From positions 9,610,001 to 9,674,000 of the forward strand of contig CP158635.1 of the NCBI GenBank assembly GCA_050273025.1: a stretch of DNA of 64,000 nucleotides, in the 5' to 3' direction. Below are positions 7,121 to 64,000 of the stretch, in pieces. The translations under genes were made by a program, and so were the position numbers. The notes beneath the pieces were generated by a model that did not search any database, was not told the DNA's origin, and saw only the letters and a program-made list of their open reading frames with translations. Positions within the stretch are counted from its first letter, which is position 1. Every line of letters starts with the position of its first letter. Source of the DNA: Cenococcum geophilum. Its lineage: Eukaryota.

Positions 7121-7124
7121 TATA

Positions 7125-25878: not shown

Positions 25879-26968
25879 ATTAAAAGAAGCGCGTTTTTAT
25901 TATAACTAGACCCTACTTTACCCCGAATTATTTAACCCTTTTATTAAAGATTTTACGGTATACATCCTTAAAATAACTAATTAATTAATTAAATAGATTA
26001 TAATTAATAAATACTTAAATAATAAGTTTATTTAAAAGACACTTAAACTAATATAGAATGGCGTTAGACACTTTAAAAAGATTTCCCTAAGTAAGTACAA
26101 AGCTTATAGAAACTACCTGTATTACTAGAACTAACTAGTTATACCTAATTATAATAAACTTAAGCTTAAGCTCCTTAAATAAGTATATAACTTACTAGTA
26201 GTTAGCCACCTAGGCTAAGGAAAGATCCTAAAACTACTCCAATAGAAATATTACTAGCTAAATATATATAATATAATACAAAGATATGTCGCTAGTTGCT
26301 ATACCTGCTAATAAGCTAAAGCCTTATATAAAATATGCAATGGCCTTTTAAAGCTACTTCCTATCTTAGACCAAAGATAGAAAAATATCTTAATTAACTT
26401 TATTATCGGACTTCCTAAAAGTAAAGGCTATAAGAACATTATAGTAGTTATAGACCAACTATCTAAAATGAGATACCTAATTACCCACCCTAATATATTA
26501 GCACCTACCGTTATCTAACTATTCCTAGATTACGTATAGAAACTCTACAGACTCCTAAAAACGATTATTTCCAATAAAGGCCGCTAGTTTGTCTTTACGT
26601 TCTAAAAAGAACTAACCGCCTGACTCTGCATTAAAGTACTACTATCTACTACGTACTATATATAAATAGATAGTTAAACGGAATGTGTAAATGCTATAAT
26701 GGAATAGTATATCTAGATATACTCGTTATATCTATAGGATAACTAGATTAACTAACTTATATTTACTAAATTTACCATAAATAACTCCGTCTTAAAAACC
26801 ACAAAAGTCTTTCCGTTCTTAGCCAACTATAGCTAGCATCCTTAAATAGGTTTTAAACCCTTAAGTAATACCCCTTGCCCCGCATATTACGCCCTATAAG
26901 TTATAAAAATAGATAAATTTATAAAGAAGATAGAGGAACTATAGTAGTTCCTTACCAATAAGATAATA

Positions 26969-29900
26969 ATAATAATAATTCATTGCTTAACGTCCGATTT
27001 GGATCCCTATTGGGCCCACGCGGACTACTCCTTATTTATATATAGGGAGAAAACTCTATTTAAGAAAAATGAGAAAACCCCGTAATCCATTTCCCCGCCT
27101 TTTAGGACTCGCCTACTTAGCGCCTATAAGTTACCTATAGTGCTCTACTACCTTATTATTTAACCTCCTTAGGAACCACTGCTGCCGTAATAAGCCTATG
27201 GGCGCGCTAGTATTATAAACTATTACTCTACTACTATAGAGTTACTAGGGGGCACCTACTGCTCGCCCCCTTACCTTTTATTACTATTTCCCTTACAACC
27301 TAGAACTAATTTAGTATATTTTAACTAATAAGCCACTGGGTAACCGCCTTAAGGCCTTTTTATATTAAGAGCAGTATATTATAGTTCTCTATGCCAGCTG
27401 CTAAGAGTATTATTTCTTAATTAATGCGTAGGGGGTATAGCAGTATTACATATTTTGGTATTTATTTTGGCCAGCTATATTTATATCTTAGGCTACTTAC
27501 TAGGACACCCACCTAGTAAAGCCAATCTTTTAGTCCTATTATTCCTATTCTTAAGAGTGTTGCTATTATATTTTCTGCCTTTATTAGGCCTTCTTAGAGC
27601 CCTTAGGTATTTACCCCCTATAGCGTTAACCATACTATAGCTTAGGTTTGTCTTGCCTAAGTTAGCCTCTATACCTTTAACTCCTATTTACCTCTCTAGT
27701 GTTAGTCCAACCAGTATTACATTACGGTAGATAGTTTCCTAGCGTTCTTATGTGTTCTACTTTAGCTCCTTTCTCTATCTTACTGTTATCTTTACTAACC
27801 TCTTATACGTCTCCCTTCCTCCTCTATATAGGCCTGGGCCCTAAAGCGGTACCATTCTTCTTCTACTTTCTTTACCTATTTCTCTAATATCTCTTCCCTA
27901 CTTTAGGGTTATTAGTTTATTCTCCTATAGGGCACCCTAGGGTCTCTTTATAGTTTACTTAAGCGTATCTTAATATACTTTATAATATTAGAGTTACGTT
28001 TATTTTACGTCCTTTATATTACAGCGGCTTTAATATATAACTATAGGGGGGGAATATTAGATTCCTTCTTAAGTAGTGCTATAGCCGTTTGCTTATACCC
28101 GCCTATAATACTTTAAAGGTAGACTGTCTAGACCTTTTAAAGTAGTTTAAGGAGTAATTTAGGGGGGCTCTTTTTAGTTTCTCTAATGGCCTAAATACTA
28201 GATCTATATATTATAGTTAGCCAAACAACTGCTATATATAGTAGGCGTAACCTCTAGAAGTATAGACCCCATATAGAATTAATAATCCTAGATAAAGCGA
28301 TAAACTATACTTGGCCTTTATAGGCCGCTTACGCCGCATATATACTCTACCGGAGCTTACTGTCTACCTATACTCCTAATACCCTTAGGCCCTAAACTGG
28401 TTAACCCCTAAAGCCTTAGATGTGAATTATATACTAGAGATCTGTAGATTAGTTGCGTTTTCTTATAAAATAGATTAGCTAGTATTTCTCTAGTAAGAAT
28501 TAGACTCTATAACGTTTTGCCTATTCTATATAAGTGTTATAGGCTTTCTCTAGTATTCTATAATTCTCTGCGGCTATTAGCCCATATATAATTAGGTTTG
28601 TATTATTAATAAAGCCTATCCCCTAGGTCGCCCCTTCCTTAAAGGAGTTAAGTAAGTTGCTTATAAAGAAAAGGAAGAGTATAGGCAAGAGGGGTAATCT
28701 TTGTGGTATTCCTATTATAACTGTAATAGGGGGGCTCTGGTATCCGCTAAAGACTAATAATATTTCTTTCTGGCCTATAAACCCTTAGATAAATTATATA
28801 ATCTATTCTAAAAAGCCCTTTGCCCTAAGGATATATAGGAGACGCTTATGGGGTATATTATTATAGGTACCACTAATGTCTAGGCTAAGCATTAATACTA
28901 TAAAGTCCTTTTACATCGCCTATATAGATTTAATGGTGGTAACAAGTAGCGTAAGTACTAATAGTGTTAAGCGGTTCTTTCTTGCCCCTATTTAGCTTTA
29001 TAGTAGTAGGGCGTATTCCTCTACCGTATCTGCTATACGTTCCGCTATTACCCTTTTTAAGATCTTACTAAGGGTATTTTCTAAGGCAATAGGGCGGTAG
29101 CTTCCTGGGATTAAGTAATCTGCTTTACCTTCTTTTTATAAAATAACTGTTATTATAGATCTTCCGAGTCGCGGGTAGTAGCCTATAGCAAAGTATACTC
29201 TAGCTACATCTATAAGTTAAAGTGCTATAAGTGGCCCACAGGTTTTTAGGGCCTTATTTGGAATCCCATCTAGTCCTAGTGCTGTATTATTTAAAAGGCG
29301 GCTAATGGTTTTAGCTATTTCCTCTATTATTATATCGCTGTTGACCCGTAGGTAAGTCACTAGTATTTCGCCCGTAATATTACTAAGGTCTGCTAGAGCC
29401 GGTTAGGGGAAGAACCTTTCTATAAGGATCTTTACCTTCTTATTATTATTGTTTATGGCCTATAATTCTCCTACTCTTTATAGGGGTAGTAGGTATAAAT
29501 CTTCTACTAGGCGCCCTACCTTTTTCTTTACCTATTTTACTATAGCCTAAAGGCCCTTATTATAGGGGAGGCTCGGGTTAGAAGTATACTTATTTATAAA
29601 CCGTCTCCAGTTATTCCTTACTTCTTTTTTTAGGGTATTCTTTAGCTGGTTTCTTGTGTCTTTATATCGTCTCTTATCTTTAGGGTTGTAGCTGCTTATA
29701 TATTTCCTTCTTGCTTATTATTAGCTGGTAACTAGAACTGTGTATTATATAGACTATACGTGTCGCGCATAAGGGCCCGGTTTTAAGATTGGGTAGTACT
29801 CTTCCAGCCTATTTTTAATTGCTGCCTAGATCCTTTCTAGTCTTCGGTTAATTTCCTTAGGGGTAGCTAATAAGCCTCGCTTATTTAGTATTAGGTGGAT

Positions 29901-32900
29901 TTCTTCTAGGTTTTAGAGTTATTATTTAACTATATTAAGGAAACTGTCTATCTTAAGCTTCCTTATTATATATCTTTTTCTATTTAGTTACGCTTTAGTA
30001 TTTAGGTCTAGCTATATCTAGATAGGGATATAGTCTAGGGTAAGTGCCTATTCTTCTTTAGGGTTATACCTTTTAAGTCTTTAGTATAGGCCTTCGTCTA
30101 TAAATATAAGGTTAATTATACTTTTGGCGGTGCCTTATTGCCATATAATTGCTCCTAGGGGGGTAGCTAGCTTAAGGCCCCAGATATTTATAGCTCTTAG
30201 TAGGCACTCTAACTATTAATCTGCAGCAATATAGATACCCCCCTACCGCGGGTGGTAGAGGTTTATATCTCCTAGTAGGATAGACTCTATACCTTTAGTT
30301 TCTAGTAAGCTTATTACTAATATAATATTCTCTGTTTATGGGACCCCTTTAACCCTAGGGTTATACACATTAATAATTTATACCGGTCCCCTATATGTTT
30401 GGATTGTTATAACTGTAATATCTAGGTTAACTGCCTGCTATAACTATAAGGATAGGCTAATAGCCTTACTAATTATAAAGCACACGTGTGTGGCTGCTTT
30501 TAGTTTATATAGGAGCTGGAATCCTTAGGGGCAGTATATTAATTATATAAAGGTATTATAATACGGTTCTTATATAGTAAGGATATAATATTTCTCTAGG
30601 TCTAAACTGTCTAGTAGGGGCCTTATAAGGCGGTGGTTTGTGTTGCTGTAGTTATACTATATAATAGATAGGTAGCGGACCCCTGGTGAGGGTCCTTTAA
30701 CTCTCCTTCGTTCCTTACTTCTTCTATTTTTACTTTCTTTAGGATATTTAGAGCTTCTGTCTCTTGTATCTATACCCTAGTTACTACTTATTTTATATAG
30801 AGCTTTCCATTCCTATGTCTTATATTCCTGTTAGCGCTTCTATATCTAAATCTATTATTATTACTAGTTCTTCCCCTATTCTTACTAGTTGGCTATATAC
30901 CCTTTATAGGTCGGCTGCGAATATTATATTTGCCGTATTAAGTCTAATTCTTAATTATCCTGGTCTTAAGCCTACTATTGCTGTCTATAGGGGTCTTCCT
31001 ATAGGGCATCCTCTCCCTTATGTCCCCTGTGACCCTTATATCCTTAATTAGTCTGGTAATGTTATACGGCGTCGCTTCTGGCCCGTTAAGGCTTAGGATA
31101 GCTAGCCTAGCCCTCTAGTATTAAAGGTAGGAAATGCTAGGAAGGCGCCTACGTCCCCTTAGCTTATTGCCTGTTGTTTCCATTTATATAACCTAGCGTG
31201 CAGTTATTCCCATAGCTGTTAAGCCCTTGCCTTTCGTCTTCTATATTTAATGTAGTCTTCTCTCTTCTACGCCTTATATATGCTTTGGTGGTAGTTCGCG
31301 CATTTTATTTAGTTTTAATTTAAGTAATATCTTATATTATAGGGGCCTATATAGTGGCCGCAGCACACCTATACTGCGTATATAGATTAGGTGTGTCCCT
31401 ATTATATATAGCGATAGTATTATTCTAGGCGTAGTCTGTGGTTATAGAGCCTTATATTATATATAAGGCCATTTATAATTATTCCTTTTTAGATAAGGAG
31501 TTTTTGTATTCCTAGTATATATGTGCTAATAATAAGGGAGCTATGCGTTTATCCGGCGTCTCCCTAGCAAGTCTCTAGCAACCCTTATATCCTCTTATTA
31601 TTTTTATTATATGCTTAGTTTATATTTTCCTATTAAAGCTATTAGATTTGGGTGATTTTAAGTCCTAGTATAAGGCGTTTCATTTATCTTACTATCTCCT
31701 ATATAATTGCTGTGTTGTCTACCTAGCGTCCCTTTTCTACCCTAAGGCTTATAGGAACCGCTGGGACTTTAACTAGGTAATCCTTATAGAGTACTTTTAT
31801 GCCAATACGTTCTCCTAGCCTATCCCCTACCCTTACGGCTTATTCCTTTGCCTATTGGTCCTTTAGGGTAACTCTAATGTCTCTACTCTTAAGGTGTTGG
31901 ACTGTAATAGCGTTATAGACCTCTTTACGTATCTCTATAAGGACTTCTGTTTCTAATTATCCCCTAAGCCCCTCTACTTGTTCTATGTTTAGTTATATTA
32001 TAATTATATACCCGGTTATTAACTTAAGGGGAGTAGGTTCCCTATGCTATAAAAGCGCAGCTATAGCGGCCCAGGTACGGTTCGCCGGTAAGGGGGGGTT
32101 ATGCTTATTTTTAATTTTGCTTAGCCGTTAGAGGATTTAATTGAGGGTTTGCTGGAGGGGCGCCTAAGGTTCGCTAGACTGGCGGAGCCATTCTACTAGC
32201 TGCATTAGTTCGTTATGGCAGGTGGTTATATAGTAGAGTTTAACGTGCCTGCTTATCTAGGCCTCTACCCTAGTTTTTTAGTATTTATCCTAAACCTAGG
32301 CCTAAAGGCTTAGGGGCTTTCTATAAGCAGTTAGCTGCCACTACCTTAACGGGGGGTTTTACCAGTTCTTTTAGATATCTTATAATAGGTTAGCCTAAGT
32401 ACTAGTCTGCCCCCCCGCAGTCTATATAAGAGTCTCCTCCTAGAGTTAGTACGTTTTTGTACGGCTTAGGAGCCTTCTATAGCCTCTAGTTTTATACCTT
32501 TTTTATTATTTCCGCCGGTATAGGCATAAGCTGCCTTTTCCAGGGGTCGTAACTCCCGTCTTACGTGCCTATTAGCGTAATCCTGCAAAGGTGTTATAGC
32601 TATATCCTGCAATATAGAAGCCTTGGGTACCTTCTATAGTTAAGGCCTAGACTAAAAAAGCCTCCCCTGCCTAAGTAACTCCTATTTGCTCCTTAAGCGT
32701 ATTTTACTAGCGTACCGCCCTAAAGGCAAACGGTTCCGTCTATTAATATACTAATACGCGTATCCGTTCTCTTAAGCTACGTAGTAGTCTCTCCGGCTAG
32801 GATATAATCCTGCCTACCTACTAGGTGCACTAGGGGTTAGAGCCTAGCTAAGGGGTAAGGTCCCTAGAGCTAGCAGTGGCTACTACGTACTACGCCCTAT

Positions 32901-41075: not shown

Positions 41076-41673
41076 GGCCACTGCTAATTACATACCCCCT
41101 AATTACTGCGCGCACACCCCCCCGAAACAGGCTTAGATTCTTCCACTTCAAGTTAGAATATCACGTGTGTTTGACTTGTTTACACACAAATCGCGAAAAT
41201 AACACCACGCGCCCATACCAAGAGCCTGCAATTGTAGAGCGTCGTCGCGGTCGCGGTCGCGGTCGCGCGGCTGGCTGGCTCTACGGCTGGCTCTATAAAT
41301 CGCATCAATAACTCTACTCAGCGGGAGCTCTTAGTATTCGAGCGAAATACTGGCTGCACTACCCGTGGATACATGTGGGCACAAGTGCAGGCGCGGGCGC
41401 GGGCGCGGGTGTGTCCATGGAGGCAATCTACAGACGTCAAAATAGAGGCAGCAGCACCAAATCTAGTTCTTACAGCGCTTCGCAGAGCACTCCGCAGTCA
41501 GTCATTAGGTATGGGCGCGTGGTGTTGTTTTCGCGATTTGGGTGTAAACAAATCAAACACACGTAATATTCTAACTTAAAGTGGAAGAATCTAAGCCTGT
41601 TTTAGGGGGGTGTACGAGCAGTAATTAGGGGGTATGCGCGCAGTAATTAGGGGGTGTGTAACTAGTAGTGGCC
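41076..41673. mobile_element. Non-autonomous DNA transposon with long TIRs (about 140 bp) and 8-bp TSD (Mutator-like; hAT not excluded)
   Basis: GGCCAC...GTGGCC termini, TSD TATTATTA (41068-75 / 41674-81), GC-rich interior with (CGCGGT)n. Confidence 0.88.
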
Positions 41674-42197
41674 TATTATTATACTCTTACTAAATAAGGT
41701 TCTTATAATAAGTATTATATCTTTTTTTTAAACAGTAGCTATCTAAGGGTTTTAAGTTACTTTATATGTCTATAATACGGATATAAAATGCAATAGCTTT
41801 ATTAACCTTACTTAGCTACTAGGCGTTACTCTCTTTATAAAGCGCAATAAGCTAATCTTAAAAGTCCTATAGCTGGCGCTCCTATTCCATTCTATAACTC
41901 CTTTAAGTCTAATTATTTAATACCTAATACAACTACAGCTATTCTAGTACCTTATTTAACTTTCCCCCCTTTAGCCTAGTAGGTTTTAGCACTGGTATAG
42001 GTATATTTGCCCAGATATCCGTAACTTAGCAGTCGGCGCGTAATAAGGTTTTAGTAGGTATTACACCCTATAACGCCTATACTATATATTCGCTAGGCTA
42101 TAATAGGTTCTTTAAGGTAGCTATAATAAATCTATATAGGTTTTATATATATTAGCTAGCGTTTAGTAAAATTATAGAGGCTTAAGAACGTTAATAA

Positions 42198-45100
42198 TAT
42201 AACGAAGCCTTATAGGAAATATTATGGTAGACTCGCTAATAGGCTAGGTGTGTAGGTAAATAAAAAGTTAATAACGTAATAATAACTAGTAAAGTGGTTG
42301 CCTAATAGATTAACTCTAATTATATTCTAAGATTTACTATAAGGAAAGGAACTATAGGTCCTTAAATACACATCTATACTTCTAAGAAAGTTATTACTCT
42401 ATCTACTCTATCTGCTCTATTTACTCTATTATAGATTATATAGATTATATAGATTATATAGATTACATTATATAACCTTGCTTACTATTCCTTATTATAT
42501 AGTTCCACTAGTTCTATTCTAGACTATACTCCTATTAATTAACTAGCTTCTTTTAACTCTCCTCTAAGTAGCCATAGCCCTTTACTTAAAGCGTCTATAA
42601 TACTATCTCCCTCCTCTTTATCTTCGTCCTTAAAGATTCCTAATATCTCTAAGTTATTTTAATTAGAGGTGTAATGTCCGTCTAATTAATTTGGTTAATA
42701 TTATTGCTTATTATACCTAAAGTATCTTCTTCTTTATCTACAGCTCGTTAGTTTTATACCGTTACTGTGATATTATCTCTTAGTAAAATAATGCCATCTT
42801 TATATTCTTATTATGCAAAAGAGGGGTTAGTGTATATTGCGTTAGTAAGTCCTTTATTTTAGCAACCCTCTTCCTACTTAGAGTACACTAAAGTAAACGT
42901 TTAATCCTCCTGCAATGTTCGCTCTGTTTTTAATACTAAGTATACGCATTCTATTACTTTTAATAGCCTTTAAGTTCCCTAAGTAATTTATTATAGGGTC
43001 TTATATTTAATCTGCCGCTGTAAAACTTAATAATAAGCTCTTAGTAGTACTAGCTAAACTTTATTGTTCTTATAATACTAAAAGAGAGGCTGCTAATACT
43101 TAATAGCGTGCTCTTAACTCTTGCCTAGCTACGTCTACTTAGTTAATCTGTCTTAAGAAGGTTTATAAAAAGGTACGTTCTAAGGAGTATAAACTTATAG
43201 AATAAGGCCTTTAGGAACTTGGTAATAAAAGAACGGATTCTCTTCTAATAGAGAGGGAAATAACTCTAAATACCTTAGTAGCTGCTCCTCTTAGGTCCCC
43301 CTTAGGTAACTCGTTCTTTAGCGATCCTTCTTTATTAATACTACCTAACCTGTTTTTTTCTAATACTCCTGTACCTTTTTTATAGCGTTTTTTAAATTGT
43401 CTAGTGGCTCCTAAGTAGTCTTATTATAGCCTATCTACTTTACTTTATACTACGTTTTATTATTAATATCCTTATAACTAATAATCTTTAAAACTTTCTA
43501 GTTATCTTCCTCTTGTTCTTTATATATGTCTACCTTATAAACTAGTGGCTTAACATTCCTATATACTAGCTCTAGTATTACAATATACTATATAGGGAAG
43601 ATCTTTATTTTCTCTAGTAAGTTAAGTCTGTATATAACTTCTAAGATCTTTGCTTTAACTATAAATGGTTCTAGCCTAATATAGTCTAATTTCTTACTTA
43701 GTCGTCAACTCTTAAAATTTTTATATAGTAGCTATACTTTATCCCCCTCCTTAAGATCTGGTCCCTTAGATCTCTTAGTATTATAGTACCTTTTTATTCT
43801 TTCTTATACTAGTTTAGCTATTTCTTTAAGGTAATTATAAAGATTTATTAAGTTCTCCATTCTTTTTTTAGCTATGCTACTTGTTTTCTTTACTTAATAT
43901 AGCGATAACAATATTCTTAGCTTGTATCCGTAATTCGCCTTAAAAGGTAATATACCTATCCCTTTCTATGGTGTTGTATTATATATAAACTATATAACTG
44001 GTAATAATAATACCTAATTGTTTTATACGTAATTAATATAATGCCTTAAATACTATTCTAACGTTTGGTTTGGTCTTTCTATTTAACCGTCTATTTATAG
44101 GTAATATACTGTTAATATTACTGCTTAAGCCCCTTATTCTGCTAAGAATACCTCCTAAAATACTGCTATAAATCTTAGATCTCTATCTAATATAATTTTT
44201 ATTAGTGCTCTATATCTTACAAACACTTCTTTAATATAGATTCTAGCTATATCCTCTACTAAGATTTCTTCTGTATATGCTATAAAGTTGCCCTACTTAG
44301 TTAACTTGTCTACTATTACTAAGATCGCGTTATAATCTTATCTTATAATAAAATCTTTTAACTTTAGCAACTTTATAATAAAGTCCTATAATATAACCTC
44401 CTATAGTCTTTCTAGTATCTTAATAGGTTATAGCCCTCTATACAGCTTATACCTTATTAGTTTATTTCTCTAATAATCTAAATTTTTCTTTATAACTTAT
44501 CTTGCTAGTCCCTAAATTTCTTAAATAATATATTCCTCTTAAAGTCTTAATACTAAGCCTATAGCTCCGTTATATCCTTGTGTTATTCCCTTATAGAATT
44601 TACTAATAAACTCTTTTGCTATTAATTTTAGTATATATATTTTCTTAGTTCTTATACTACTCTAAGTCTAGATCCTTACTCTATACTTTTTAGATATTCT
44701 ATATTTATACGCTTTCTAGTAAATTATAGATTTGGCTAATTTCTCTTATTGCTATAATCTTAGGATAATTGTATCTAATTAATCTATCTTCGTCCTTTTA
44801 TAATATAGCCCCTAATGGTTTTTTATTATTTTATAATTCTGCCTTTCTACTAAGTGCGTCTGCCCTTATATTCTTAGTACCTTTAGTATACTAAATTTCA
44901 AAGTAATATTCTATAAGCATTTCCGCCCATTTAACCTATCTATAATTAAGTTCTTTTATTATTAGGAACCCTATTAGGTTCTTATAATCTATTTTAATTA
45001 TAAATAGTTTCTCTATACCTTATAAGAATGCTCTCTACTTTTTAAGTACTATAACTATACCTAATAACTCCTTATTATAGATGTTGTAGTTTAGTTCTAG

Positions 45101-48100: not shown

Positions 48101-49862
48101 AGCTAGTTCCTTTCTCTTCCTTATTGCTATTAATTAATAAGTGCTCTAACTCTATTATTATTATTACTAATCTTTGTCTATATATTGCTGTAATATCTTA
48201 ATCTAGCTTATAGAGTCGATCTTATTCTTTATTTAACTCTTAGGTTCTTCTAAGTCCTCTTAACTCTAGCTCTTATAGCTAATAGCTTACGCCATACTTA
48301 GCGTCTTTATAAACTTAGCATGCGTTATTATAATAAAACGTAAAACTGTTAATTAAACATTCTTTTATTTTTTATAGCACACTATTGTTCCTTTATATAT
48401 ATATGTCGTCTACTAGTCTGGTTCCCTTTACTATATAGTTACTCTAACCACCTCTATAGTCTTTAGCGAAATAATCTTATTTCCTATAGTTTATATAAGC
48501 TCCATCTCTAAACTACTAGTTTTATTATAGAGTCCGCCTAAACGTCTTCTACTATTAAGATCCCTAGTTTGGCCTCTACTCCTTAGTCTTATAATTACTA
48601 AATCCTTAACCTTTAGGTTTCTATAGTTTCTTACTCTATCTCTTAGATTTCTTGGTGCCGCTTAAGTCTATTAGCTCTGGCCTATTCCATAGTTTTTAAC
48701 TTTGGCTTTATTAATGCGTACTCTGCGCCTTATATAACTATAGAACTCTATCTTACCCTCTCTTAGCTTATTCCCTTTAGTAGATTCTATTATTAATCTT
48801 AATCGCTTAATTAATTAGATCCCTTATTATTTCCGTATCTTCTATTAGAATAATTACGTCCTAGACTTTAGCCTTAAGTCCCTATTTATACTATATTATA
48901 AGCGCCTTCTTATTCTACTTAACCTATACCAAAAGTGTCTAAAACTATATTATGTACTTAATTACTAACGTCCTTTATACTATATTTTGAAGTTTTTGTT
49001 CTACTATAGTTGTTGCCTTAGGGTCTCCAAATATCTGCGTAAGTTGCTCCGCGAATCCTCCCTAGCTTAAGAATATATACTTAACTTCTAAGTTAGTAGT
49101 TTGGTCCCCATATTCCTATATATTAGTAAGGTATAACTTAAACCATTTAAGTTCTCTTCCTAATAAGAACAATCTTATATAGACCACTTAGTCTATAGGG
49201 GTAGCTAACTTAACTCCCTCCTATAGTACCTTAAACTGCATTTATACAAGAAATCCTTTAAGCTTTAACTTCTCTCCTAAGAATCGTTTAACTAATAGTA
49301 GCTTAACCTTTACTGCTCCAATTCTATTAATTTGATTTTTAAGTATTTAATTATTATCTATTAACCAATTAACTATTTCCTGTAACTGACCTACCGTAAT
49401 AAGCTATGAGCTGCTATCCGCTATGCTAGTATATCTACTTATACCTAAGGTAGTTGCTGCCGTCAATGGCGTCGTAACTAGTGCTTTTAGTGGCATGTTA
49501 TTTGACTTTATTAATACCGTAACTAGGTAGTAAATGTATAATAAAGCCTTATAGGAAATACTACAGTAGACTTGCTAATAGGCTAGGTATGTAAGTAAAT
49601 AAGAAGTTAATAATATAATAATAACTAATAAAGTAGTTGCCTAATAGATTAACTCCAATTATATTTTAAGATTTACTATAAGGAAAGGAACTATCTAGGT
49701 AGGGACTATAGGTCCTTAAATACACATCTATACTCTTAAGAAAGTCGTTACTCTATTTGCTCTATCTGCTTTATCTACTCTATCGTAGATTATATAGATT
49801 ATATAAATTACACAGATCACATTATATAACCTCGCTTACTATTCCTTATTATATGGTTCTAC
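42198..49862 (-). mobile_element. Chromovirus D: 3' LTR 42198-42602; 5' LTR 49537-49862, truncated by insertion of E
   Basis: The two LTRs match. PPT (rc AGAGGAGGGAGATAG) at 42603-42617. Minus strand carries gag, PR, RT (YLDDII about 45625), RH, IN and a chromodomain ending at about 43319. Confidence 0.92.
42713..43418 (+). pseudogene. Antisense spliced ORF in the 3' region of D: Zn2Cys6-like cluster plus coiled coil
   Basis: De-RIP C-x2-C-x6-C-x13-C-x2-C-x8-C at 42803-42913. Predicted intron 42942-42996. Exon 2 reads WSRIQSAAAKLDDEL...RLIRLEKVRKKVRSKE..LVERGLQEL. Confidence 0.7.
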
Positions 49863-52800
49863 TATTACGGACGCTTTAAGTACAATGTTACGACTACTAG
49901 AAGAGGAGTCGGAAGAAGCTAGTTGGTTAATATAGGCACGGTCCAGGATGGAACCCGTAGAACCATATAACGAGGAATGGTAGCTAAGGTTATATAATGA
50001 GCTCTGTGAGCTCTATAAGATCTATAAGGAACGTCCTATATACCTTATATACCTCATATACCTCACGTATAAGAAGGATTTTATAGGAGTACGGTTGTGT
50101 ATTTAAAGACCCTTAGTCCCTACCTAGATAGTTCCTTCCTTGTAGTGATTCTTAAAATACAATTAAAGTTAATCTATTAGGCAACCACTCCACCAGTTAT
50201 TATTACGTTGTTAACTTTCTGCTTTACCTATATACCTAGCCCATTAACGAATCTACCGTAGTTCCTGCTATAAGGTTCCGTTACACAATCACTACCACAG
50301 TTATGGTAATAGAAGTTAAATAACATACTACCAAAAGCAGCTATAACGACGCTATTAATGGCAGCAACGACCTTAGGGTTAGGTAACAACACTAGTATAG
50401 TAGGTACTGACGCGCAACTAGTTATTATTGGACAGTTATAGGCGATAGTTAATTAGTTAATAGATAATAATAAGGCACTTAAATAAAGGGCCAATAGAAT
50501 AGGAGCAGCTAAGGTTAAGTTACCTTTAATTAAATAATTCTTAGGAGAAAGATCGAAGCTTAAAGGATTCCTAATGTAAATACACTTTAAAGTCACACAG
50601 GAAGGAGTAAGATTGGTAATACCTATGGATTAGGTAGCATACGCAGGATTATTCCTAACGGGAAGGGCGCTTAAATGGTTTAAACCCTACCTTATAGAAA
50701 TACAAGATAATGGTATAATAACCACTAATTAGGAAGTACGATATATATTTTTAAGCTAGACTAGATTTACGGAATAATTAATATAAATGTTTGGAGACCT
50801 AAAAGCAATAACTATAGTAAAAAGGAAGCTTTAGGACCTAATATAGCAAACCTTAACAATTAAATACACAACGCAGTTTTAGACATTAGCTATATAGGTT
50901 AAATGGAATAATAAGGCGCTTATAGTATAGTATAAATAGGGACTTAAAGTAAAAGTCTAAGACGTAATTATTCTAATAAAAGATGCGGATACCCTTAGGG
51001 AATTAATAGATTAAGTAATTAAGATTAATAATAGGATCTTCTAAAGGGAATAGGCTAAGAGAGGCTAGGATAGAGTTCTATAGTTATATAAGGTATAGAG
51101 TACGTAATAACTAAAGTTAAATTAGAAACTATGGTATAGCGCAGAGCTAATAGACCTAAGTAGTACTAAAGAAACCTGTAAGAGATAGGGAAAGCAACTA
51201 TAGAAACCTAGAAGTTAAGGATTAAGTAATTATAGGACTAAGAAGCATAGGCCAAACCAAGGATCTTAGTAGTAGAAGACGTTTAAGCGGACTCTATAGC
51301 AAAAGCAATGGTTTAAAGATAGAGCTTATATAAATTGCGGAAAACAGAGTTATTTCGCTAGAGACTGTAGAAGTAGTTAGAGTTATTATGTAGTAAAGGG
51401 AACTAGACTAATAATAAGTAATATATACGTATAGAGGGACGATAGTGTACTATAAGGAATAAAAGAATATTTAATTAAAAGTTTTGCGTTTTATTATAAT
51501 AATACATACCAAATTTATAAAGACGCTAAGTATGGCGCAAGCTATTAGCTATAAGAGCTAGAGTTAAAAGGACTTAAAGGAACTAGAGAGTTAGATAAAG
51601 AGTAAAATTAACTCTATAAGCTAGATTAAGATATTATAGCAATATACGGATAATAATTAGTAGTAATAATAATAGAGTTAGAGTACTTATTAATTAACAG
51701 CAATAAGGTAGAAGAAAGAACTAACTAGGGGTATCTAAACCTTAATAACGTAATTAAAGTAGAGACTAAGACCGCTATAGAGCAAGATTTAGTAACGGGT
51801 ATTATAATACCGTTAGATACGGCATCTATTGCTTTATAAGATAAAAGGAGTAATATCTAAAGACGATTAAGTAAGTAGGCGACTACTAGTGCTAGCTTAC
51901 CACTTAATAAAGGCAAAAAGCTAAAGGCTTAAAATTCTTAAGACGAGATAAGAGATGACTAAGATTCTTAAGACGAGATAAGGCACGCTTAAGGACCTAT
52001 AATAGACGATAACCAATAGAGTAGAGCAACAGCTTAGTTTAGCAATATATAAATAAGCTTAGGACGAAGTTTCCTAAATGCATAAGACTCTTAAGACGAA
52101 ATGAGTAAGATTTAAGACTTTTAAAATGAGATGAGAACACTAGTAAAGCCTAGTTAAATTAAGGCTAAAGCGCAGCTTAAGAAAGAAGTAAGCGCAAAAT
52201 TAAAGAATCTAAGGGACTAAGAATTTAGAGTATAAATAAAGACACCTATAAGCAAGAAGTAAGGAGCTTTATTATAGATTAGAGAATCTACAATATAAAC
52301 AGCAGTTAGACTAGGAGATAGATACATAGACCTAGAGGACTTACTAAGGGAATATAGTGTTTAGCCTAAAGATTAAGAAGCCGATACTATAATTAAGAAG
52401 TAAGAAAACTTTAAAGATCTAATTATAAGACGTAAATACTAAGAAACTATAGATAAGTTTAGAGCAAGAATCTTTATATAGTAAAAATAAGGACTAAATA
52501 TAAGAGCTAGCATACTAGATTGTATATAAGATAGAGCACTAGTATAAGGAATTACTAATAGGCTAAGAGTAGGTATACTAAGAGCTAAGTGGCTTACTAA
52601 ACTAGAAAATGAAGAGGATTTAGGGATTTTAACTAGGTTTAAAGAACGATATATAAAGGGCTATTACGACGCAGTAATAAGAAGATACTTCCTTATAGAT
52701 AAACTATATACACTCTAATAGCTATACTAAAGGTAGTATAGGCAAAGATATAATAATAAGTGGGAAGATTTCTATATATAGTTGGACGAGAAAGTTATTT

Positions 52801-55800
52801 ATGACTACCTAATTACGGAAAAAGTAATAAACTATATTAAGGGAGCCTTAATTATAACATTAAAGGATCTAAAGGAATAATTAGAGGACTAGAGAAGTGA
52901 AAGACGTATCTTAGTACCTGCGAATAAAGTTATAACGTTTAAATTAATATAATAAAGGTTTAAACTTAAGGATAAAGATAAGCTAAGAGTTAACCTAGGT
53001 TACTAAGCATATTATACCCTATTATAGATAGCTTATATAGATAATATAGATAATATATATAGAGCACCAAAGGATAAATATTAAAAATACTTTATAAGGA
53101 TATATTAGGCGCTAGATAAGCGATAGTATAGAAATGCTAAGTATATATACGGCTGGCATTTAGTAAAAGTTTAGAAGTTAGAAAACTTAATACTTTAACT
53201 AAAAAGATTCCTTACGGAAAAATACTTAGATGGATAATAGTAGTGGGAATGCCCAGAGAATACGTGTCTATAGTATATTAAGGATAAAAAGTAAATAAAG
53301 CATTAGCTAAAGAATAAGTTAAGTATATAAGGATTTAGCAGCTAATAGTTAGGAAAAGTGGAGGCCTATAGAACTAGAGGGAGCTAGTAGTAGAGCCTTA
53401 AACCCTTAAAGGAATTTAAGAACAACACCTAAATTTATAAGTTAAATGGCAAGATTAACAGTTTAAAGTATTAGTAGATAGTAGAGCAATAAGGAACTAT
53501 ATTTCACTAATAGTAGTTAAAAGGATAGGGCTACCGCATAGGTAAAAGGAGCACCCTTATCTACTAGTTATAATTTTAGGAGATCCAATAGCCTATAGAG
53601 GAGGCATTATTAATCTTAAAATAGGGCCTATTTAGATAACCATTAAAGGGAGATAAGTTAAGATATTTTTTAATATATTACTATTAGGGAATAATAAGGC
53701 AGTATTAGGAATACCTTAGTTATAGAAATATAATCCAAAAATTAATTAGATTATAGGTTAGATCAATATTAAGGATACTTAACGCCGTAAGACACAATAA
53801 TAAGCTAAGATGGTATAGTACTAAGTTAAAGCGATATATAAGGAAACTGAGAAAGGGTTAAGTTATATACTAAAGAGATACTATAAATACGGCAAGAAAC
53901 TATAGTTATTAAAAAATAAGAAGCTATTAGAATACGTAGTATAGGACTATAAGATAGAATTAGAACTAGGAATAAGTTTAAGGTTCTTTCTAATCTATAA
54001 GCTTACTAAGGAAGGAAGGAGAGCACTAAAAGAGTTTATCTAGGAAAACCTATAAAAGGGGTATATTAAACCATTATAGTTATTAGCAGGATATCTAGTA
54101 CTATTCGTACCAAAGAAAAACGGAAAACTTAGGCTATACATCAACTATAAATAGTTAAACAGCATCACTAGAAAGGATAGGTATTCTTTACCCTTAATTA
54201 GTAAGATTTAGAATAGGATTAGTAATATATAAATCTTTACGAAGATAGATCTAAGATAGGCGTACCATTAGATTAAAATTAAGGAAGGTAATAAATAGAA
54301 GGCAGCCTTTAGGTTAAAGGAAGAATTATATAAGCTATTAGTTATGCAATTTAGGCTTATAAACACACTAGCAACGTTTTAGAAACGTATTAATAATATA
54401 TTAAAAAAACACTTAAATGAATTTATTATAGTATACTTTAATAATATTATTATCTACTTAATAAGCGAGGAAAAGAGCGAGCCAATTACTATTAAACTCT
54501 CTTGACATTCGGAACAAAAGGAGCTCTTACTGCACTCGGCCTAAAAAGACCAAAACCAACCAAAAGAACCCTGAAAAACACCTAGAGAATCCCCCTAAGA
54601 TGCATGTATCGCAGGGGAGGCACACGTTAAACGACAGTGGCTCATACTCGCGCGCGACCGCTAGAACTACGCCTAGCAATGGCCCTCCATAATAAAGACG
54701 GGCGAATACCATATTATAAAGCGGAAATACCTCTATTAAGAAGGCATCTAATAAAATATAAAGCCTATTAGACGTGTCTAGTATCTAGAATTATAGGGGA
54801 GTAACCGTTAGCTATAACAAACTAATATAGCTAGTAAAATGGCTCCGCCAGTCTAGCAAACCTTAGGCGCTCCTCTAGTAAACCCTTAATTAAATCCTCT
54901 AACGGCTAAGCAAAATTAAAAATAAGTATAACCCCCCCTTATTAGCGAACCGCACCTAGGCCGCTATAGCTGCGCTTTTATAGTATAGGGAACCTACCCC
55001 CCTTAAGTTAATAACTGGGTATATAATTATAATATAACTAAATATAGAATAAGTAGAGGGGCTTAGGGGATAATTAGAAATAGAAGTCCTTATAAAGATA
55101 TATAAAGAGGTTTATAACGCTGTTATAGTCTAATACCTTAAGAGTGGAGATATTAGAGTTACCCTAAAGGACTAATAGGCAAAGAAACGAGCCGTAAGGG
55201 TAGGGGATAGGCTAGGAGAACGTATTGGCATAAAAGTACTCCGCGAGGATTACCTAGTTAAAGTTTTAGCGGTTCCTATAAGCCTTAGGGTAGAAAAGGG
55301 ACGCTAGGCGGACAATATAGCAATTATATAGGAGATAGTAAGATAAATGGAACGCCTTATACTAGGACTTAAAATCACCTAAATCTAATAGCTTTAATAG
55401 GAAAATGCAAACTAAGTATATAATAAGAATAATAAGAGGATATAAAGGTCATTAGAGACTTGCTATAGAGACGCTAAACGAATATATGGCTCCCTTATCA
55501 TCAGTATATATATACTAGGAATGCAAAAACTCCTTATTTAAAAAGGAATAATTATAAATGGCCTTATATATAATATAAGGCTCTATAACCACAGACTACG
55601 CCTAAAATAATGCTATTACTATATATAATGGGGACATACCTAATCTATATACACAGTATAGGTATACTGCGGCCACTGTACAGGCCCCTATAATACGAGA
55701 TATTGCTTAAATTAAAACTAAATAAAATGTATAAACTGCTACTAAAGTATATATAAGGCGTAGGAGAGAAAAGACTGTATTAAATATAGGAGACGGAAGG

Positions 55801-58800
55801 TAAGGGCTTAATAGCTGCGGGAATAACTGCACGCTAGGTTATATAAATGGAAACAATAGGTAATAAGCTAGGGGGACGTAGGCGCCTTTCTAGCGTTTCC
55901 TAACTTTAATACTAGAGGGCTAGGCTAGCTATCCTAAGCCTTAACGGGCTAGAAGCGACGCCGCGCGATATTATTAGACTAATTAGGGATATAAGGGTTA
56001 TAGGGGATATAAGGGAGAGGACGCCCTATAGGAAGACCTCTATGGACAGCAACAGTAGGCTTAAGACTAGGATAATTAAGAATTAGACTTAATACGGTAA
56101 ATATAATATTTATAGCCGACCTATAAAGGGTATATAGCCGACTAGTAAGAATAGGGGAAGAACTGGTAATAATAACAGATTTAGATATAGAAGCGCTAAT
56201 AGGAATATAAGATATGGGAATAAAAAGCTCTATATAAAATAAGTAGTAACTAGGGTATAGATATAAGAGATAGAAGCTCTAAATATCCTAGAGAAAGTAA
56301 AAATAGAAGAAGCGAGGAACAAAGGAAAGTTAAAGGACCCTCGCTAGGGGTCCACTACCTATCCATTATATAGTATAACTGCGGTAACACAAACTACCGC
56401 CTTATAAGGCACCTACTAGATAGTCTAGACCTAGAGAAATACTATATCCTTACTATATAAGAACCGTATTATAATACCTTTATACAATTAATATACTGCC
56501 CCTAAGGATTCTAGCTCCTATATAAACCAAAAGCAGCTATACGCGTATACTTTATAATTAGTAAGGCTATTAGCCTGTCCTTATAGTTATAGCAGGCAGT
56601 TAACCTAGATATTGTAGTTATAATAATCTAAATATATAGGGGACCGGTATAAATTATTAATGTATATAACCCTAGGGTTAAAGGGGTCCTATAAATAAAG
56701 AATATTATATTAGTAATAAGCTTACTAGAAACCGAAGGTATAGAGTTTATCCTACTAGGAGATATAAACCTCTACTACCCGCAGTAGGGGAGTATCTATA
56801 TTGCTGCAGATTAATAGTCAGAGTGCCTACTAAGAGCTATAGATATTTAGGGCCTTAAGCTAGCCACCCCCCTAGGAGTAATTATATAGCAATAAGGCAC
56901 CGCCAGAAGTATAATTGACCTTATATTTATGGATGAAGGCCTATACTAGAGACTTAAAAGGTATAACCCTAAAGAAGAATAGGCACTTACCCTAGACTAT
57001 ATCCCTATCTAGATATAGCTAGACCTAGATACTAAAGTGTAACTAAATAGAAAAAGATATATAATAAGGAAGCTTAAGACAGATAGTTTTCTTAATATAG
57101 TTAAATAACAATTTTAAGACCTAGAAGAAATCCACCTAATACTAAACAAGCGAGGCTTATTAGCTACCCCCAAGGAAATTAACTAAAGACTAAAAAGGAT
57201 CTAGGCAGCGATTAAAAATAGGCTAAAAGAGCACTACCCGATCTTAAAACTAGGCCCTTATACGCAATATGTATGGTCTATATAATGCGCAGTTCTGGTT
57301 ACTAGCTAATAATAAGTAAGAAGAAAATATATAAGTAGCTATAACCCTAAAGACAAGAGATAATATAAAGACATAAGAAACTAGCTAAAGAATACCCTAA
57401 AAAAAGAAGTAAGGAATAACTAGAGACGGTTTATAAACGAGTATACTTCTAACCTAAGCCTCCCCTATAATAAGGGCCTTTGGGCTATAGCAAAATAGGT
57501 AAAGAAAAAGGCAGGGCGCCTAGTAGAAGACCTATACCTACTACTCCTATAAAGAGCAGAAGAATTATAGGCTATAAACAATAATAATAAAAAGGCAAAA
57601 ATCTTTATAGAAAGGTTCTTCCCCTAACCGGCTTTAGTAGACCTTAGTAATATCACGGATAAAACACTAGTAACTTACCTATAGGTTAACAGCGATATAA
57701 TAATAGAGGAAATAGCTAGAACTATTAGCCGCCTTTTAAATAATATAGCACTAGGACCAGATAGGATTTTAAATAAGGCCCTAAAAACCTATAGGCCACT
57801 TATAGCACCTTAGCTTACAGATATAGCCAAAGTATACTTTGCTATAGGCTACTACCCGCAACTTAAAAGATCTATAACGACGGTTATTCTATAAAAAGAA
57901 AGTAAAGCAGATTACTTAATCCCAGGAAGCTACCGCCCTATTGCCTTAAAAAACACCCTTAGTAAGATTTTAGAAAGGGTAATAGCGGAACGCATAGCAG
58001 ATATAGTAAAGAAATACGCCCTACTACTATAAAGCTAAATAGGGGCAAGAAAAAACCGCTTAACACTATTAGCACTTACGCTACTCGCTACTACTATTAA
58101 ATTTATATAGGCGATACGAAAGGACTTTATAGTATTAATGCTTAGCTTAGATATTAGTAGTACCTATAATAATATACCCCATAAGCGTCTCCTGTATATC
58201 CTTAGGGCAAAGGGCTTCTTAGAATAGATTATATAATTTATCTAAGGGTTTATAGGCTAGAAAGAAACATTACTAGTCTTTAGCGGATACCAGAGCCCCC
58301 CTATTATAGTTACAATAGAAATACTATAAGGATTACCCCTCTCGCCTATACTCTTCCTTTTCTTTATAAGTAACCTACTTAACTCCTTTAAGGAAGGGGC
58401 AACCTAGGGGATAGGCTTTATTAATAATATAAACCTAATTATATACGGGCCAATAGCTATAAAGAATTGCAGAATATTAAAGAAAGCCTATAATACTTAT
58501 ATAGAATAGGTAAAACGTTATAGAGTCTAATTCTTACCAGAGAAATACTAGCTAATCCATTTTATAAGAAAACGCAACCAATCTATAGATCTTTAGCATA
58601 TAATTTATATCTAAGGCTTTAGGGGTTAACCAGTTTAGGGCCTAAGGGTATTAGGAGTATAGGTAAATAGTAAGCTCTAGTAGAGCGTATATGCGGCGTA
58701 AGCGGCCTATAAAGGCTAAGCATAGTTTATCGCTTTATCTAGGATTATTAATTCTATATAGGGTCTATGCTTCTAGAGGTCACGCCTACTATATATAGCA

Positions 58801-61800
58801 GTTATCCGGCTAACTATAATATATAGATCTAGTATTTAGGCCATTAGAGAAACTAAAAAGGGCCCCCCTAAATTACTTCTTAAACTACTTTAAAAGGTCC
58901 AGACAGCCTACCTCTAGAGTATTATAGGCGGGTATAAGCGAACGGCCATAGCACTGCTTAAGAAGAAATCTAATATTCCCCCCCTATAGTTATATATTAA
59001 AGCCGCTATAATATAAAGGATATAAAATAAACGTAACTCTAATATTATAAAGTATATTAAGACACGCCTAAGTAAACTATAGAGGGACCCTAGGGTGCCC
59101 TATAGGAGAATAAACTAACAACCCTAAAGTAGGGAAGAAATATTAGAGAAACAGGTAAAGAAAGTAAAAGAAAAATAGTGCCGCTTTAGGGCCCAGGCCT
59201 ATATAAAGGAGAAAGGGAGACGTATAAGAGGTTAGTAAAGACAATAGTAAGATAAAAAAAGGAGCTAAAGTAAAACATATAAGAATGCTAGGAAACTATC
59301 TACCGTAATATAATACTAGTTGGACTAACGCTAGAGAGGTAAATAGGAGTTAAAGGTATAAAGGCTAACTTAGGCAAGATAAACCTAAGCTATAGTATAG
59401 TTAACGCTATAGGGGGTAAATACCTAAGGGCTCTAAGAAGGCCTAATAAAGGCAGAAAATATAATAGCAACACTCTTAAGAACAGGAATAATAGGACTAA
59501 AAGATTGGCTTTACTGGGTAGGTGTCCTAGTAGGTAGCCTAAGATGCGAATATGGCTGGCTAAGATAGACACCAAAACATGTAATACTACTATGCCCCCT
59601 ACGCACCAATTAAGAAATAATACTCTTAGTAGCTAGCATAGAGAACTATAATACACTACTCTTAATATAAAAAGGCCTTAAGGCGGTTACCTAGTGGCTT
59701 ATTAGTTAAAATGTGCTAAATTAGTTCCGGGTTATAAGGGAAATAGTAATAAAAGGCAAGGGGGCAAGCAGTAGGTACCCCCTAGTAACTCTACAGTAGT
59801 AGAGTAATAGTTTATAATACTAGCGCGTCCGTAGGCTTATTACGGCAGCAGTAGTTCCCAAAGAGGTTAAATAGTAAGGTAGTAGAGCACTATAGGCGAC
59901 TTATAGGCGCTAAGTAGGCGAGTCCTAAAAGGCGGGGAGATGGATCACGGGGTTTTCTCATTTTTCTTAAATAGAGTTTTCTCCCTATATATAAATAAGG
60001 AGTAGTCCGCGTGGGCCTAATAGGGATCCAAATCGGACGTTAAGCAATGAATTATTATTAATAAGCGAGGAAGAGGACGGAGAATATATTAAATAGGTTT
60101 TAAAGAGACTACAAAAGGAATAAATGCTAGTAGTAATTGAGAAATGCAAGTTCTTTACTAGAAAGACCAATTTTATTAAATTTATTATTAAATTAGGCTA
60201 ACTTAGTATAGATCTAAAGAAGATTAAGGCTATAGTAAATTGGTAAGAACTAGAAAATGTTATATAGTTAAGGTCGTTTTTAGGGGTTTTCAATTACTAT
60301 AGAAGGTTTATAGCTTAATAGTTAAAGGACATTAAGCCGTTTATAAGGTTAATAAAGAAAGAAGAACCTTAGGTATAAAAAGAAGAATAAAGAAAACTAT
60401 TTAAGGAGGTTAAGAAGTTGTTTACTTAAGACCCAGTTCTTAAAATCTACTAACTAAAACTAGAGATAGTAGTTAAAACGGATATATTAGACTTTATACT
60501 AGGGGAATACTTTCTATAAAAATATAAAAATAGATGGCACCTAGTAGTATACTATAGTTAGAAGATAATACTACTAGAACTAAACTATAACATCTATAAC
60601 AAGGAGTTATTAGGTATAGTTATAGTACTTTAAAAATAGAGAGCATTCTTATAAGGTATAGAAAAACTATTTATAGTTAAAACAGATTATAAGAACTTAA
60701 TAGGGTTTCTAATAATAAAAGAACTTAATTAAAGATAAGTTAGATAGGTAAAGATGCTTATAAAATACCATTTTAAGATTTAGTATACTAAGGGTACAGA
60801 TAATACATAAGTAGATACTCTAAGTAAAAAGGCTAAACTATAAAATAACGAAAAGTTATTAGGGGCTTTACTACAAAAAGATACAGATAGTTTAATTAGA
60901 TATAATTATCTAAAAATTACAGTAATAAGAGAAATTAGTTAGACCTATAAATTATTAGAAAGTAACTAGTTATAAAAAATCTAAGATATATAGGCAGAGA
61001 ATCCAAACTTAGAGTAGTATAAAAACTAAGAAGTAATGTATATGCTAAGGGGCATTATAAAAGAATTTATTAAGTTATTTTATAAGGGACTAACTTAAGG
61101 ACATAATAGAGCTATGGGCTTAGTGTTAAGACTTTAGGAGGAGTATATTATTAATAGAATCTAGGGACTAGTAAGATAAGTTATAAAGAAATATCTAGAT
61201 TACTAAAAAAATAAACTAGCACGATATAAGCTATATAGAGGGCTATAACCTATTAAAATACTAAAGAGACTATAGGAGGTTATATTATAGGACTTTATTA
61301 TAAAGTTGCTAAAGTTAAGAGATCCTATTACCGGATAAGATTATAACGTAATTTTAGTAATAGTGGATAAGCTAATAAAGTAGGGATACTTTATAGTATA
61401 TACGGAAGAAATCTTAGTAGAAGATATCGCTAGAATCTATATTAAAGAAGTATTCGCAAGATATAGAGCACTAAGTAAGATTATATTAGATAGAGATTTA
61501 AGATTTATAGCAGTATTTTAGGAGATATTCTTAGCGGAATAAGGAGTTTAAGTAGCAACTTCTACCGTATATTATCCGCAGACAGATAGTTAAATAAAAA
61601 GATTAAATTAGACACTAGAATAGTATCTAAGGCATTATATTAATTATATATAAAACAATTAGGTATTATTATTACTAGTTATATAGTTTGCATATAATGC
61701 GACACCTTAAAAAGAAATAGGCATATTACTATTTAAGGCGAATTACGGATATAAGCTAAGAATATTGTTATTACTACGCTAGGTAAAGAAAATAAGTAGT

Positions 61801-62045
61801 ATAGCTAAGTAAAAAATAAAGATACTAATAAATCTTTATATATACCTTACGGAAACAGCTAAGGTAGTATAGTAAAGAATAAAAAAGTACTATAATGCTA
61901 AGAGATCTAAGGGGCTAGATCTTAAGGAGGGAGATAAAGTATAGCTACTATATAAAATTTTTAAAAGTTAACAACTAAGTAAGAAGTTAGACTACGTTAG
62001 GCTAGGACCTTTTAAAATTATATAAAGAATTTCACTAGTTATATC
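49863..62045 (+). mobile_element. Chromovirus E (relative of D): 5' LTR 49863-50285, 3' end lost at about 62045, LINE inserted in RT
   Basis: TATTACGGACGC..CCGTTACA LTR. gag knuckle (about 51325-51368), PR LVDSGA (about 53470), RT YFDDII (about 54433), RH and IN are colinear in inverted orientation with D. Confidence 0.92.
54473..60057 (+). mobile_element. Apparently full-length Tad1-like LINE (ORF1 from ATG 54600; ORF2 about 56350-59910), RIPed
   Basis: TSD TTAATAAGCGAGGAA (54458-72 / 60058-72) and an (ATT)n tail. EN LSIIQYNCG (56359), RT GSYRPIAL (about 57925) and PLSPILFLF (about 58337), C-terminal CECGW..TPKHV..LC. Confidence 0.93.
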
Positions 62046-63650: not shown

Positions 63651-64000
63651 ATGGCAACGTCTTTTAATACTTTCCGCCTCCCTCAGACGCACGTACACTC
63701 TCAGTTCATATATTATAACGGCTCCCCTGCGCCAAAAACCCCTCGACGTTACACCCCAAAAAATGCTCCGTCCATCGCCGATGAATGGCACGACATTGAG
63801 ATTCTGAGGACCGAGCTAGGATCGAACACCAAATCCGAGGATAGAGGAGTTCTCACACCCACGTCCAATAGAGCTGAATCTATGGATTTAGAATACTTAG
63901 GTAGGCTTCCCCACAGTGGCGAGGCAATGTTTTGTTTATATTAGCCTTGCATAATGCATAACATATACGCAGACGGCAGAATCGACGGTGAAATCGGTGG
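63651..64000 (+). CDS. 5' part of a host gene of unknown function (exon 1 63651-63900, intron 63901-63972, exon 2 runs off the window)
   Basis: Non-RIPed DNA with a CT-rich upstream tract and ATG in GCAATGG context. AG|GTAGGC donor, CATAAC branch-like site and CGCAG acceptor. The spliced frame stays open (..EYLDGRIDGEIG). Confidence 0.6.

Follow-up and report, generated by a model that had tools for sequence, protein, structure and literature searches.

Antisense genes of LTR retrotransposons and the C. geophilum locus

LTR retrotransposons are usually described as carrying gag and pol. Additional ORFs occur on the antisense strand of such elements, and the available part of one article treats their role as an open question (PMC7264820). 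The same source places Boty, an element of Botrytis and Sclerotinia, among those bearing an antisense ORF of unknown function between pol and the 3′ LTR, and mentions nuclear localization for some of the plant antisense ORFs found at this place (PMC7264820). The brtn gene is mentioned with no domain in the accessible text of two further articles (PMC8365987, PMC4227169). Transposon-borne fungal genes are also found in the REP9 DNA transposon of Zymoseptoria tritici, for which the accessible text of the source describes REP9-1 and REP9-2 (DUF3716) as cargo genes (PMC8232023). Among fungal regulators, the DNA-binding layout of Gal4 consists of a cluster, a linker, and a coiled coil, in this order; Lys18 of Gal4 contacts the CGG triplet, and Pho7 binds DNA without an equivalent of this residue, according to the part of the source available (PMC5559640).

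The window, i.e., the whole stretch of 64,000 nucleotides of Cenococcum geophilum DNA that was analyzed, contains on its + strand, between positions 42713 and 43385, what is with near certainty an accessory gene with two exons, typical of one fungal Ty3/Gypsy clade and here inactivated by RIP. The gene is located between pol and the polypurine tract (PPT)/3′ LTR of its element and encodes ~205 residues in the antisense orientation. The original prediction had proposed a third, spliced, antisense accessory gene encoding six cysteines and a coiled coil; such a gene was recovered in most copies of the element and is under protein-level selection.

Element D and its surroundings

The window belongs to a genome assembly of 178 Mb in 7 contigs, and its DNA consists of RIP-mutated repeats, with a TpA/ApT ratio of ~1.4 to 2.6 as far as 62 kb. 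At that point, the sequence shifts abruptly to GC-rich DNA devoid of the RIP signature and containing short ORFs only (62045 to 64000). Other repeats in the window include tandem arrays of 17-, 20-, and 12-nt units (6769 to 8551), the 17-nt array being the source of most of the chance Tyr/Cys spacings detected in the window; an inverted pair of 5.3 kb (26967 to 32228 and 54802 to 60063; 92% alike) in which another element is probably represented twice; and MITE-like inverted arms of 138 nt, 91% complementary and 270 nt apart (41091 to 41228 and 41499 to 41636).

The Ty3/Gypsy element hosting the antisense gene, element D, is RIP mutated and in its entirety occupies positions 49864 to 42198 of the − strand; its gag starts at ~49493 and is followed by pol. 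We take its gag, protease, reverse transcriptase, RNase H, integrase, and chromodomain-like end to be such from a reading of the motifs by eye. The 3′ LTR (− strand, ~405 bp; 42198 to 42602) forms a direct repeat with 49537 to 49864, and LTR matches at both termini of full-length relatives cover ~42197 to 42605. The adjoining purine run (− strand, approximately 42603 to 42620) is the PPT. The 5′ LTR is shortened by a related Gypsy element inserted head to head within it (49861 to 62044). This relative is itself split by an insertion (~54473 to 60057) and stops at a position equal to 43632, so that it lacks the antisense gene.

The 3′ end of pol (− strand, 43180 to 44301) comprises the end of the integrase, an SH3/GPY-F region, a segment at ~43345 to 43520 that we assume from its motif to be chromodomain-like, and a conserved tail. 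Pfam analysis of this mutated pol end returned SH3_Tf2-1 alone (E = 0.001), the chromo domain giving no match on the mutated copy of element D. Beyond the chromodomain-like segment, the pol frame is protein-like between 43180 and 43345 (− strand) and includes a basic stretch. Some copies carry sense codons at every stop column down to ~43180, and the true pol stop is probably no later than 43180. The last codons of the antisense gene overlap the end of the chromodomain-like segment, and both strands may be coding over ~200 nt. The predicted overlap with pol is real, as judged from codon tallies and from the ends of natural proteins.

Copies of the gene and their association with pol

Two DNA searches of the C. 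geophilum genome identified 60 loci, from which 12 duplicates were removed to obtain a set of 48 copies. An enlarged set of 76 copies was obtained by adding 28 copies retrieved with a Cys-rich query (2 duplicates dropped), this set being biased as a consequence of that query. Exon 1 has at least 150 matches in the genome (150/150 scored places, from 2775 candidates).

The gene is tied to the element. Opposite-strand pol was present within 1.6 kb in 69 of the 70 metagenome loci offering at least 900 nt of room, in agreement with the expectation that homologues would occupy the same position in related elements. Among 30 copies found by means of integrase DNA, 24 contained the whole gene. In the 6 others, the match breaks off inside pol or exon 2; they include the window's own truncated neighbor (L171) and a copy in which the LTR of another element is inserted (L180), and none displays the clean pol-to-PPT junction that would indicate clean loss of the gene. 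No relative was found among 77 pattern matches in viral contigs. The ESM Atlas returned Ascomycota clusters at 0.78 to 0.89, which are leads only.

Protein-level selection

RIP yields only transitions, and we therefore counted by codon position the alignment columns in which a transversion was common to at least two copies. In own-genome copies, exon 1 (42713 to 42940) contained 27/76 such columns at the third position versus 10/76 and 4/76 at the other two (P = 2e-6, a value that serves as a guide only, as do the other P values for codon-position bias, the copies being related). The same bias was observed at the start of exon 2 (7/14 versus 1 and 2) and between 43150 and 43240 (7/30 versus 2 and 2) in own-genome copies, as well as in exon 1 of metagenome loci (22/50 versus 14/50 and 6/50; P = 0.002; 69/80 loci aligned). 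None of the 76 own-genome copies carries a net indel in exon 1, and a deletion detected in the helix-coding part in 17 of them is in frame (21 nt). The frame is thus conserved across copies, as anticipated.

The region coding for the tail (43241 to 43330) behaves differently, with no third-position bias in the frame of the antisense gene (2/30 in own-genome copies; 8/30 versus 8/30 and 9/30 in metagenome loci), so that pol, on the opposite strand, may dictate the tail sequence. Own-genome copies provide a hint of pol constraint in this region (6/30 at pol third positions; P = 0.065), which metagenome loci failed to reproduce (P = 0.46). Together, the codon-position and indel data support protein-level selection on the antisense gene.

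Start, stop, and inactivation of the window copy

Exon 1 extends from 42713 to 42941 and contains in the window copy three in-frame stops (42749, 42860, and 42902). The likely start is at 42713, with a second ATG site at 42791. An ATG is found at 42713 in 7/76 own-genome copies versus 24/76 at 42791. However, the third-position bias begins at 42713 (16/26 transversion columns versus 8/26 and 4/26 in 42713 to 42790), making the longer start likely, and the alignment of the natural protein P0227 to the window starts at 42716. The 42713 start is 111 nt from the 3′ LTR, which lies upstream of it. The region from the PPT to the start (42560 to 42700) displays very low RIP-independent variation and could hold an antisense promoter or replication signals.

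Exon 2 extends from 42997 to 43385, ends with a natural TAG stop (43383 to 43385), and contains six premature stops in the window copy. Six natural proteins terminate at a place equal to 43379 to 43382, and column 43383 is a stop in 62/62 covered metagenome loci, establishing 43385 as the end of the gene. The end originally placed at 43418 was therefore revised, and the stop at 43416 was ruled out as the gene end by the same two observations. All 74 own-genome copies that span the gene have at least 4 in-frame stops (median, 9). The window copy makes no protein from the antisense gene; it is dead and has no local consequence.

Six conserved cysteine positions

The motif C-x2-C-x6-C-x13-C-x2-C-x8-C is located at 42803 to 42913 (+ strand). 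In the window copy, the codons at 42803, 42812, 42833, 42875, 42884, and 42911 are TAT, TAT, TAT, TAC, TAC, and TGC, i.e., five Tyr and a single Cys, and both this spacing and the 55-nt gap that follows are present in the window as described in the original prediction. Each shuffled window contained on average 2.8 loose Tyr/Cys spacings of such a type, whereas the exact one turned up in 1 of 30 shuffles. The pattern of a single copy is accordingly weak evidence, and it is the other copies that decide.

Cys codons were found at the six sites, in order, in 9, 7, 4, 6, 32, and 11 of the 48 own-genome copies, the remaining codons being TAT or TAC with two exceptions only. The corresponding numbers in the enlarged, biased set were 28, 27, 19, 14, 60, and 15 of 76, with no copy having all six Cys. 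In 201 related proteins that span the six sites, these were occupied by Cys or Tyr nearly throughout, and the six Cys were intact in 4 proteins, including P0227 and P0246. The interpretation of the TAT and TAC codons as RIP products of Cys codons is borne out by these copies, each site being a Cys in 4 to 32 of 48, and the opposite outcome, a consensus retaining Tyr, is contradicted by the Cys codons that natural copies carry. At each of two loci (L168 and L070), the six-Cys exon occurs a second time a few kilobases away or less.

An intron on the antisense strand

The two exons are separated by a phase-1 intron of 55 nt (42942 to 42996, + strand) that splits a Trp codon, ends with TAG, and has a dead donor (AT) in the window copy. 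In the 48-copy set, the donor was GT in 4 copies, the acceptor was TAG in 42, and the split codon was T/GG in all 48. In the 76-copy set, the donor was GT in 7 copies and AT in 68, the acceptor was TAG in 67, and the split codon was T/GG in 74. Of 80 metagenome loci, 51 had an exon-to-exon distance of 55 nt and 24 could not be measured; a single distance of 0 was an alignment artifact, and the candidate intron-less copy L142 was rejected, as it reads through into the intron. The intron occupies one site in relatives. In 16 diverged loci, picked for lower pol identity, a gap was found at the same codon in 16/16 cases with a length of 61 nt (4 loci) or 127 to 131 nt (12 loci), starting with GT in 8 and AT in 8 and ending with TAG in 14.

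Six natural proteins (P0227, P0246, P0248, P0251, P0252, and P0254) read straight across the junction (E-W-S-R/Q-V) exactly as predicted, P0227 mapping to 42716 to 42946 and 42999 to 43202 of the window. The contigs behind these proteins are 921 to 1423 nt in length. Most other protein matches continue into the intron sequence, indicating that the gene caller does not splice and that the six contigs have no intron. Spliced RNA in relatives would be the simplest reading of the absence of the intron from these contigs, which may be of transcript origin. In another natural protein, P0111, the junction between exons 1 and 2 is slightly altered, with three other residues, which may reflect a partial deletion of the intron or another splice.

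No joint at the intron was detected on a less mutated own-genome copy (L035:980-3100) in four runs for the organism, neither in three contig sets nor among 51 reads from ~12% of the one raw RNA run, none of which was at least 95% alike and whose number was too small to be informative. Reads over the gene and pol had their first mate on the − strand only, an observation that carries no weight at a depth of at most 3 and with strandedness unknown. When an intron lies on the strand complementary to the genomic RNA, copying does not remove it. The persistence of the antisense intron is explained in this way, the copied genomic RNA being the opposite strand, and no intron-less genomic copy was seen among those compared.

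Architecture of the protein

The protein comprises, in order, a short basic and hydrophobic leader, the six-cysteine module, a coiled coil of 55 to 70 residues, and an acidic disordered tail. The long charged helix (42999 to 43220, + strand) was predicted by AlphaFold in two models with a length of 75 to 100 residues and a pLDDT of 94 to 98. It contains no Pro, and its hydrophobic period is 3.5 to 3.55 in 5 of 6 natural proteins (P = 0.011 to 0.030; 0.107 for the sixth). Up to a conserved end motif, the helix measures 53, 64, or 67 residues in natural proteins and 60 in the subfamily of the window, with steps of 7, 11, and 14 residues, which suit a coiled coil. The tail (43221 to 43382, + strand), which overlaps the end of pol, is acidic, rich in Ser and Pro, and predicted to be disordered (pLDDT, 52 to 62), the tails of six natural proteins containing 7 to 14 Asp/Glu versus 1 to 5 Lys/Arg. 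The AlphaFold models sustain the long helix but lend no support to a cluster fold, since the Cys region reached a pLDDT of 50 to 70 only, with short helices at both C-x2-C sites. Foldseek found nothing at E ≤ 0.001, and the best Z obtained with VIA was 7.5, with every match on the long helix.

Zn(II)2Cys6 proteins follow the spacing C-x2-C-x6-C-x(5-16)-C-x2-C-x(6-8)-C. P0227 and P0246, with all six Cys, display such a spacing, and a coiled-coil helix follows after a short linker. These traits are shared with Gal4/Ppr1 factors, in which the six Cys form two C-x2-C-x(6-8)-C halves upstream from a short linker and a coiled-coil helix. In contrast to these factors, the antisense protein has an inner linker of 13 residues, a total of just ~205 residues, mostly Gly at the position of Lys18 (of 55 proteins with at least 4 Cys, 39 have Gly and 8 have Lys), and a Pfam score below cutoff. 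The match to Zn_clus (PF00172) was 13.6 bits (E = 0.075; cutoff, 21), and only 5 of 53 relatives had E ≤ 1 (best, 0.04). Since this match is limited to profile positions 18 to 36, the likeness of the first Cys triad is to the second half of a Gal4 cluster, the DNA-reading first half of the profile being unmatched. The best PDB sequence match, to the PPR1 cluster, concerned the same half and was nonsignificant (E = 0.56), and a PDB profile search returned a single nonsignificant match, on flank columns. A sole protein among 53 matched DUF3716 (PF12511), weakly and below threshold (E = 0.018).

Arg residues at the linker and at the start of the helix resemble the Gal4 layout, and conservation downstream of the cluster is highest at the end of the helix. 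The LTR plus leader shows no enrichment in CGG/CCG triplets relative to pol (8 in 592 nt versus 8 in 700 nt). The antisense protein is laid out like a miniature Zn2Cys6 factor, and "GAL4-like," as used in the original prediction, applies solely to its architecture, namely, six-Cys spacing, linker, and coiled coil; membership in the family was not sustained.

Proposed function

We tentatively favor, at slightly less than an even chance, a dimeric nuclear regulator encoded by the element and acting at the level of DNA or chromatin. An antisense promoter located in or just inside the 3′ LTR would direct synthesis of a spliced mRNA; the protein would bind two zinc ions, dimerize through its coiled coil, enter the nucleus, and act in trans on the copies of its own element. 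In the simplest form, it would be a small protein that activates LTR transcription, its acidic tail being the activation region. This reading is supported by the Gal4-like order, the nonsignificant PPR1 match, the nuclear localization reported for some plant counterparts, and the precedent of Pho7, according to which a protein mostly devoid of Lys18 may still bind DNA. It is weakened by the Zn_clus score, the restriction of the profile match to the half that does not read DNA, the prevalence of Gly at the Lys18 position, the low pLDDT of the Cys region, the lack of bias of the tail in its own frame, and the density of CGG/CCG triplets.

In a rather unlikely alternative, the protein would be an interaction adaptor or anti-silencing factor. 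Its Cys module would be a structural zinc knot, and its coiled coil would bind a protein of the host's chromatin or RNAi machinery, or the Gag or integrase of its own element, without reading the DNA sequence. The unmatched DNA-reading half of the Gal4 profile, the scarcity of Lys18, and the conservation of the helix end suit such an adaptor, and nuclear import and other accessory roles are discussed for antisense ORFs in the available part of PMC7264820. The cluster-linker-helix order and the Arg residues found in the linker and where the helix begins are, on the other hand, reminiscent of a Gal4 layout.

Self-restriction, or control of copy number, is improbable. Here the gene would repress the element that carries it, either by way of the protein or via an overlapping antisense RNA feeding RNA silencing, as double-stranded RNA could form where the transcript overlaps the end of pol. 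Codon-level selection shows that the protein matters, however, and the genome contains at least 150 exon matches of the family (out of 2775 candidates); moreover, an acidic tail suits activation better than repression. A self-restriction role has nonetheless been raised for antisense ORFs, as stated in the accessible part of PMC7264820.

More improbable still is a captured fragment of a host gene, or a cargo benefiting the host, with no role in the cycle of the element. The spliceosomal intron and the likeness to host zinc-cluster factors would fit a host origin, and the weak DUF3716 match points to the cargo genes of a fungal DNA transposon (PMC8232023, seen in part). Against this stand the presence of the gene in 24/30 copies, its overlap with pol, and its fixed place across elements whose pol ends are just 45 to 60% identical to that of the window; transduced genes, according to the available part of PMC7264820, occur in one or a few copies. 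Finally, a chance frame opposite a long pol tail, with RIP products overread, has a negligible probability, since the loose Tyr/Cys spacing common in RIP-mutated DNA and the 3′ overlap with pol, which would allow it, do not account for the natural Cys codons, the selection outside the overlap, the intron of varying length, or the proteins crossing the junction, which refute it.

Returning to the regulator, a bolder form of this reading is doubtful but conceivable. A widespread clade of ascomycete chromoviruses would encode a spliced antisense zinc-cluster trans-activator or anti-silencing factor, both halves of which would be like the second half of Gal4 and which would read a non-CGG site of the element. 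If true, the gene would be a fungal counterpart of retroviral regulatory genes, would help explain how families come to number hundreds of copies where RIP operates, and would provide a first testable biochemical function for the antisense extra ORFs of LTR elements.

Comparison with known systems

For fungal Gypsy elements, no antisense gene with a six-Cys coiled-coil product was found described in the literature, in which subscription papers were thinly covered, and the available parts of PMC3248453, PMC4595289, and bioRxiv 10.1101/2022.03.07.483234 make no mention of such a gene. The antisense layout is already known, whereas, as far as these sources reach, the defined spliced six-Cys coiled-coil product appears not to be in print. 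Proteins REP9-1 and REP9-2 are likewise small, fungal, and transposon borne, and their overexpression induced the other genes of the element in vitro according to the accessible text (PMC8232023), a functional parallel to the regulator favored here. REP9 differs in being a Class II element, and the sole tie is the single subthreshold DUF3716 match among 53 proteins.

Among the closest known systems is brtn of Boty, also an antisense gene in the interval between pol and the 3′ LTR of a chromodomain-bearing Gypsy element. In contrast to the gene reported here, the descriptions of brtn, in the parts available, contain no domain, cysteine motif, or intron, and no named BRTN was among the sequence matches to the antisense gene. 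The comparison thus concerns position and not sequence, and the two genes may belong to the same family or represent a parallel gain.

The gene also has the features of the aORF-3R class, namely, an antisense location between pol and the 3′ LTR, presence in most copies, and coding conservation. It shares with the plant aORF-3R genes (Grande gene23, RIRE2, Retand, and PvRetro13) position, orientation, presence in most copies, and a proposed regulatory role, as far as the available part of the source describes them (PMC7264820). Unlike the plant proteins, for which that text reports no clear database similarity, the fungal protein has a six-Cys module, a coiled coil, and a splice junction that natural proteins cross. 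Its gene, intron, stop, and domain layout are fixed by natural sequences, and the intact proteins P0227 and P0246 allow direct tests.
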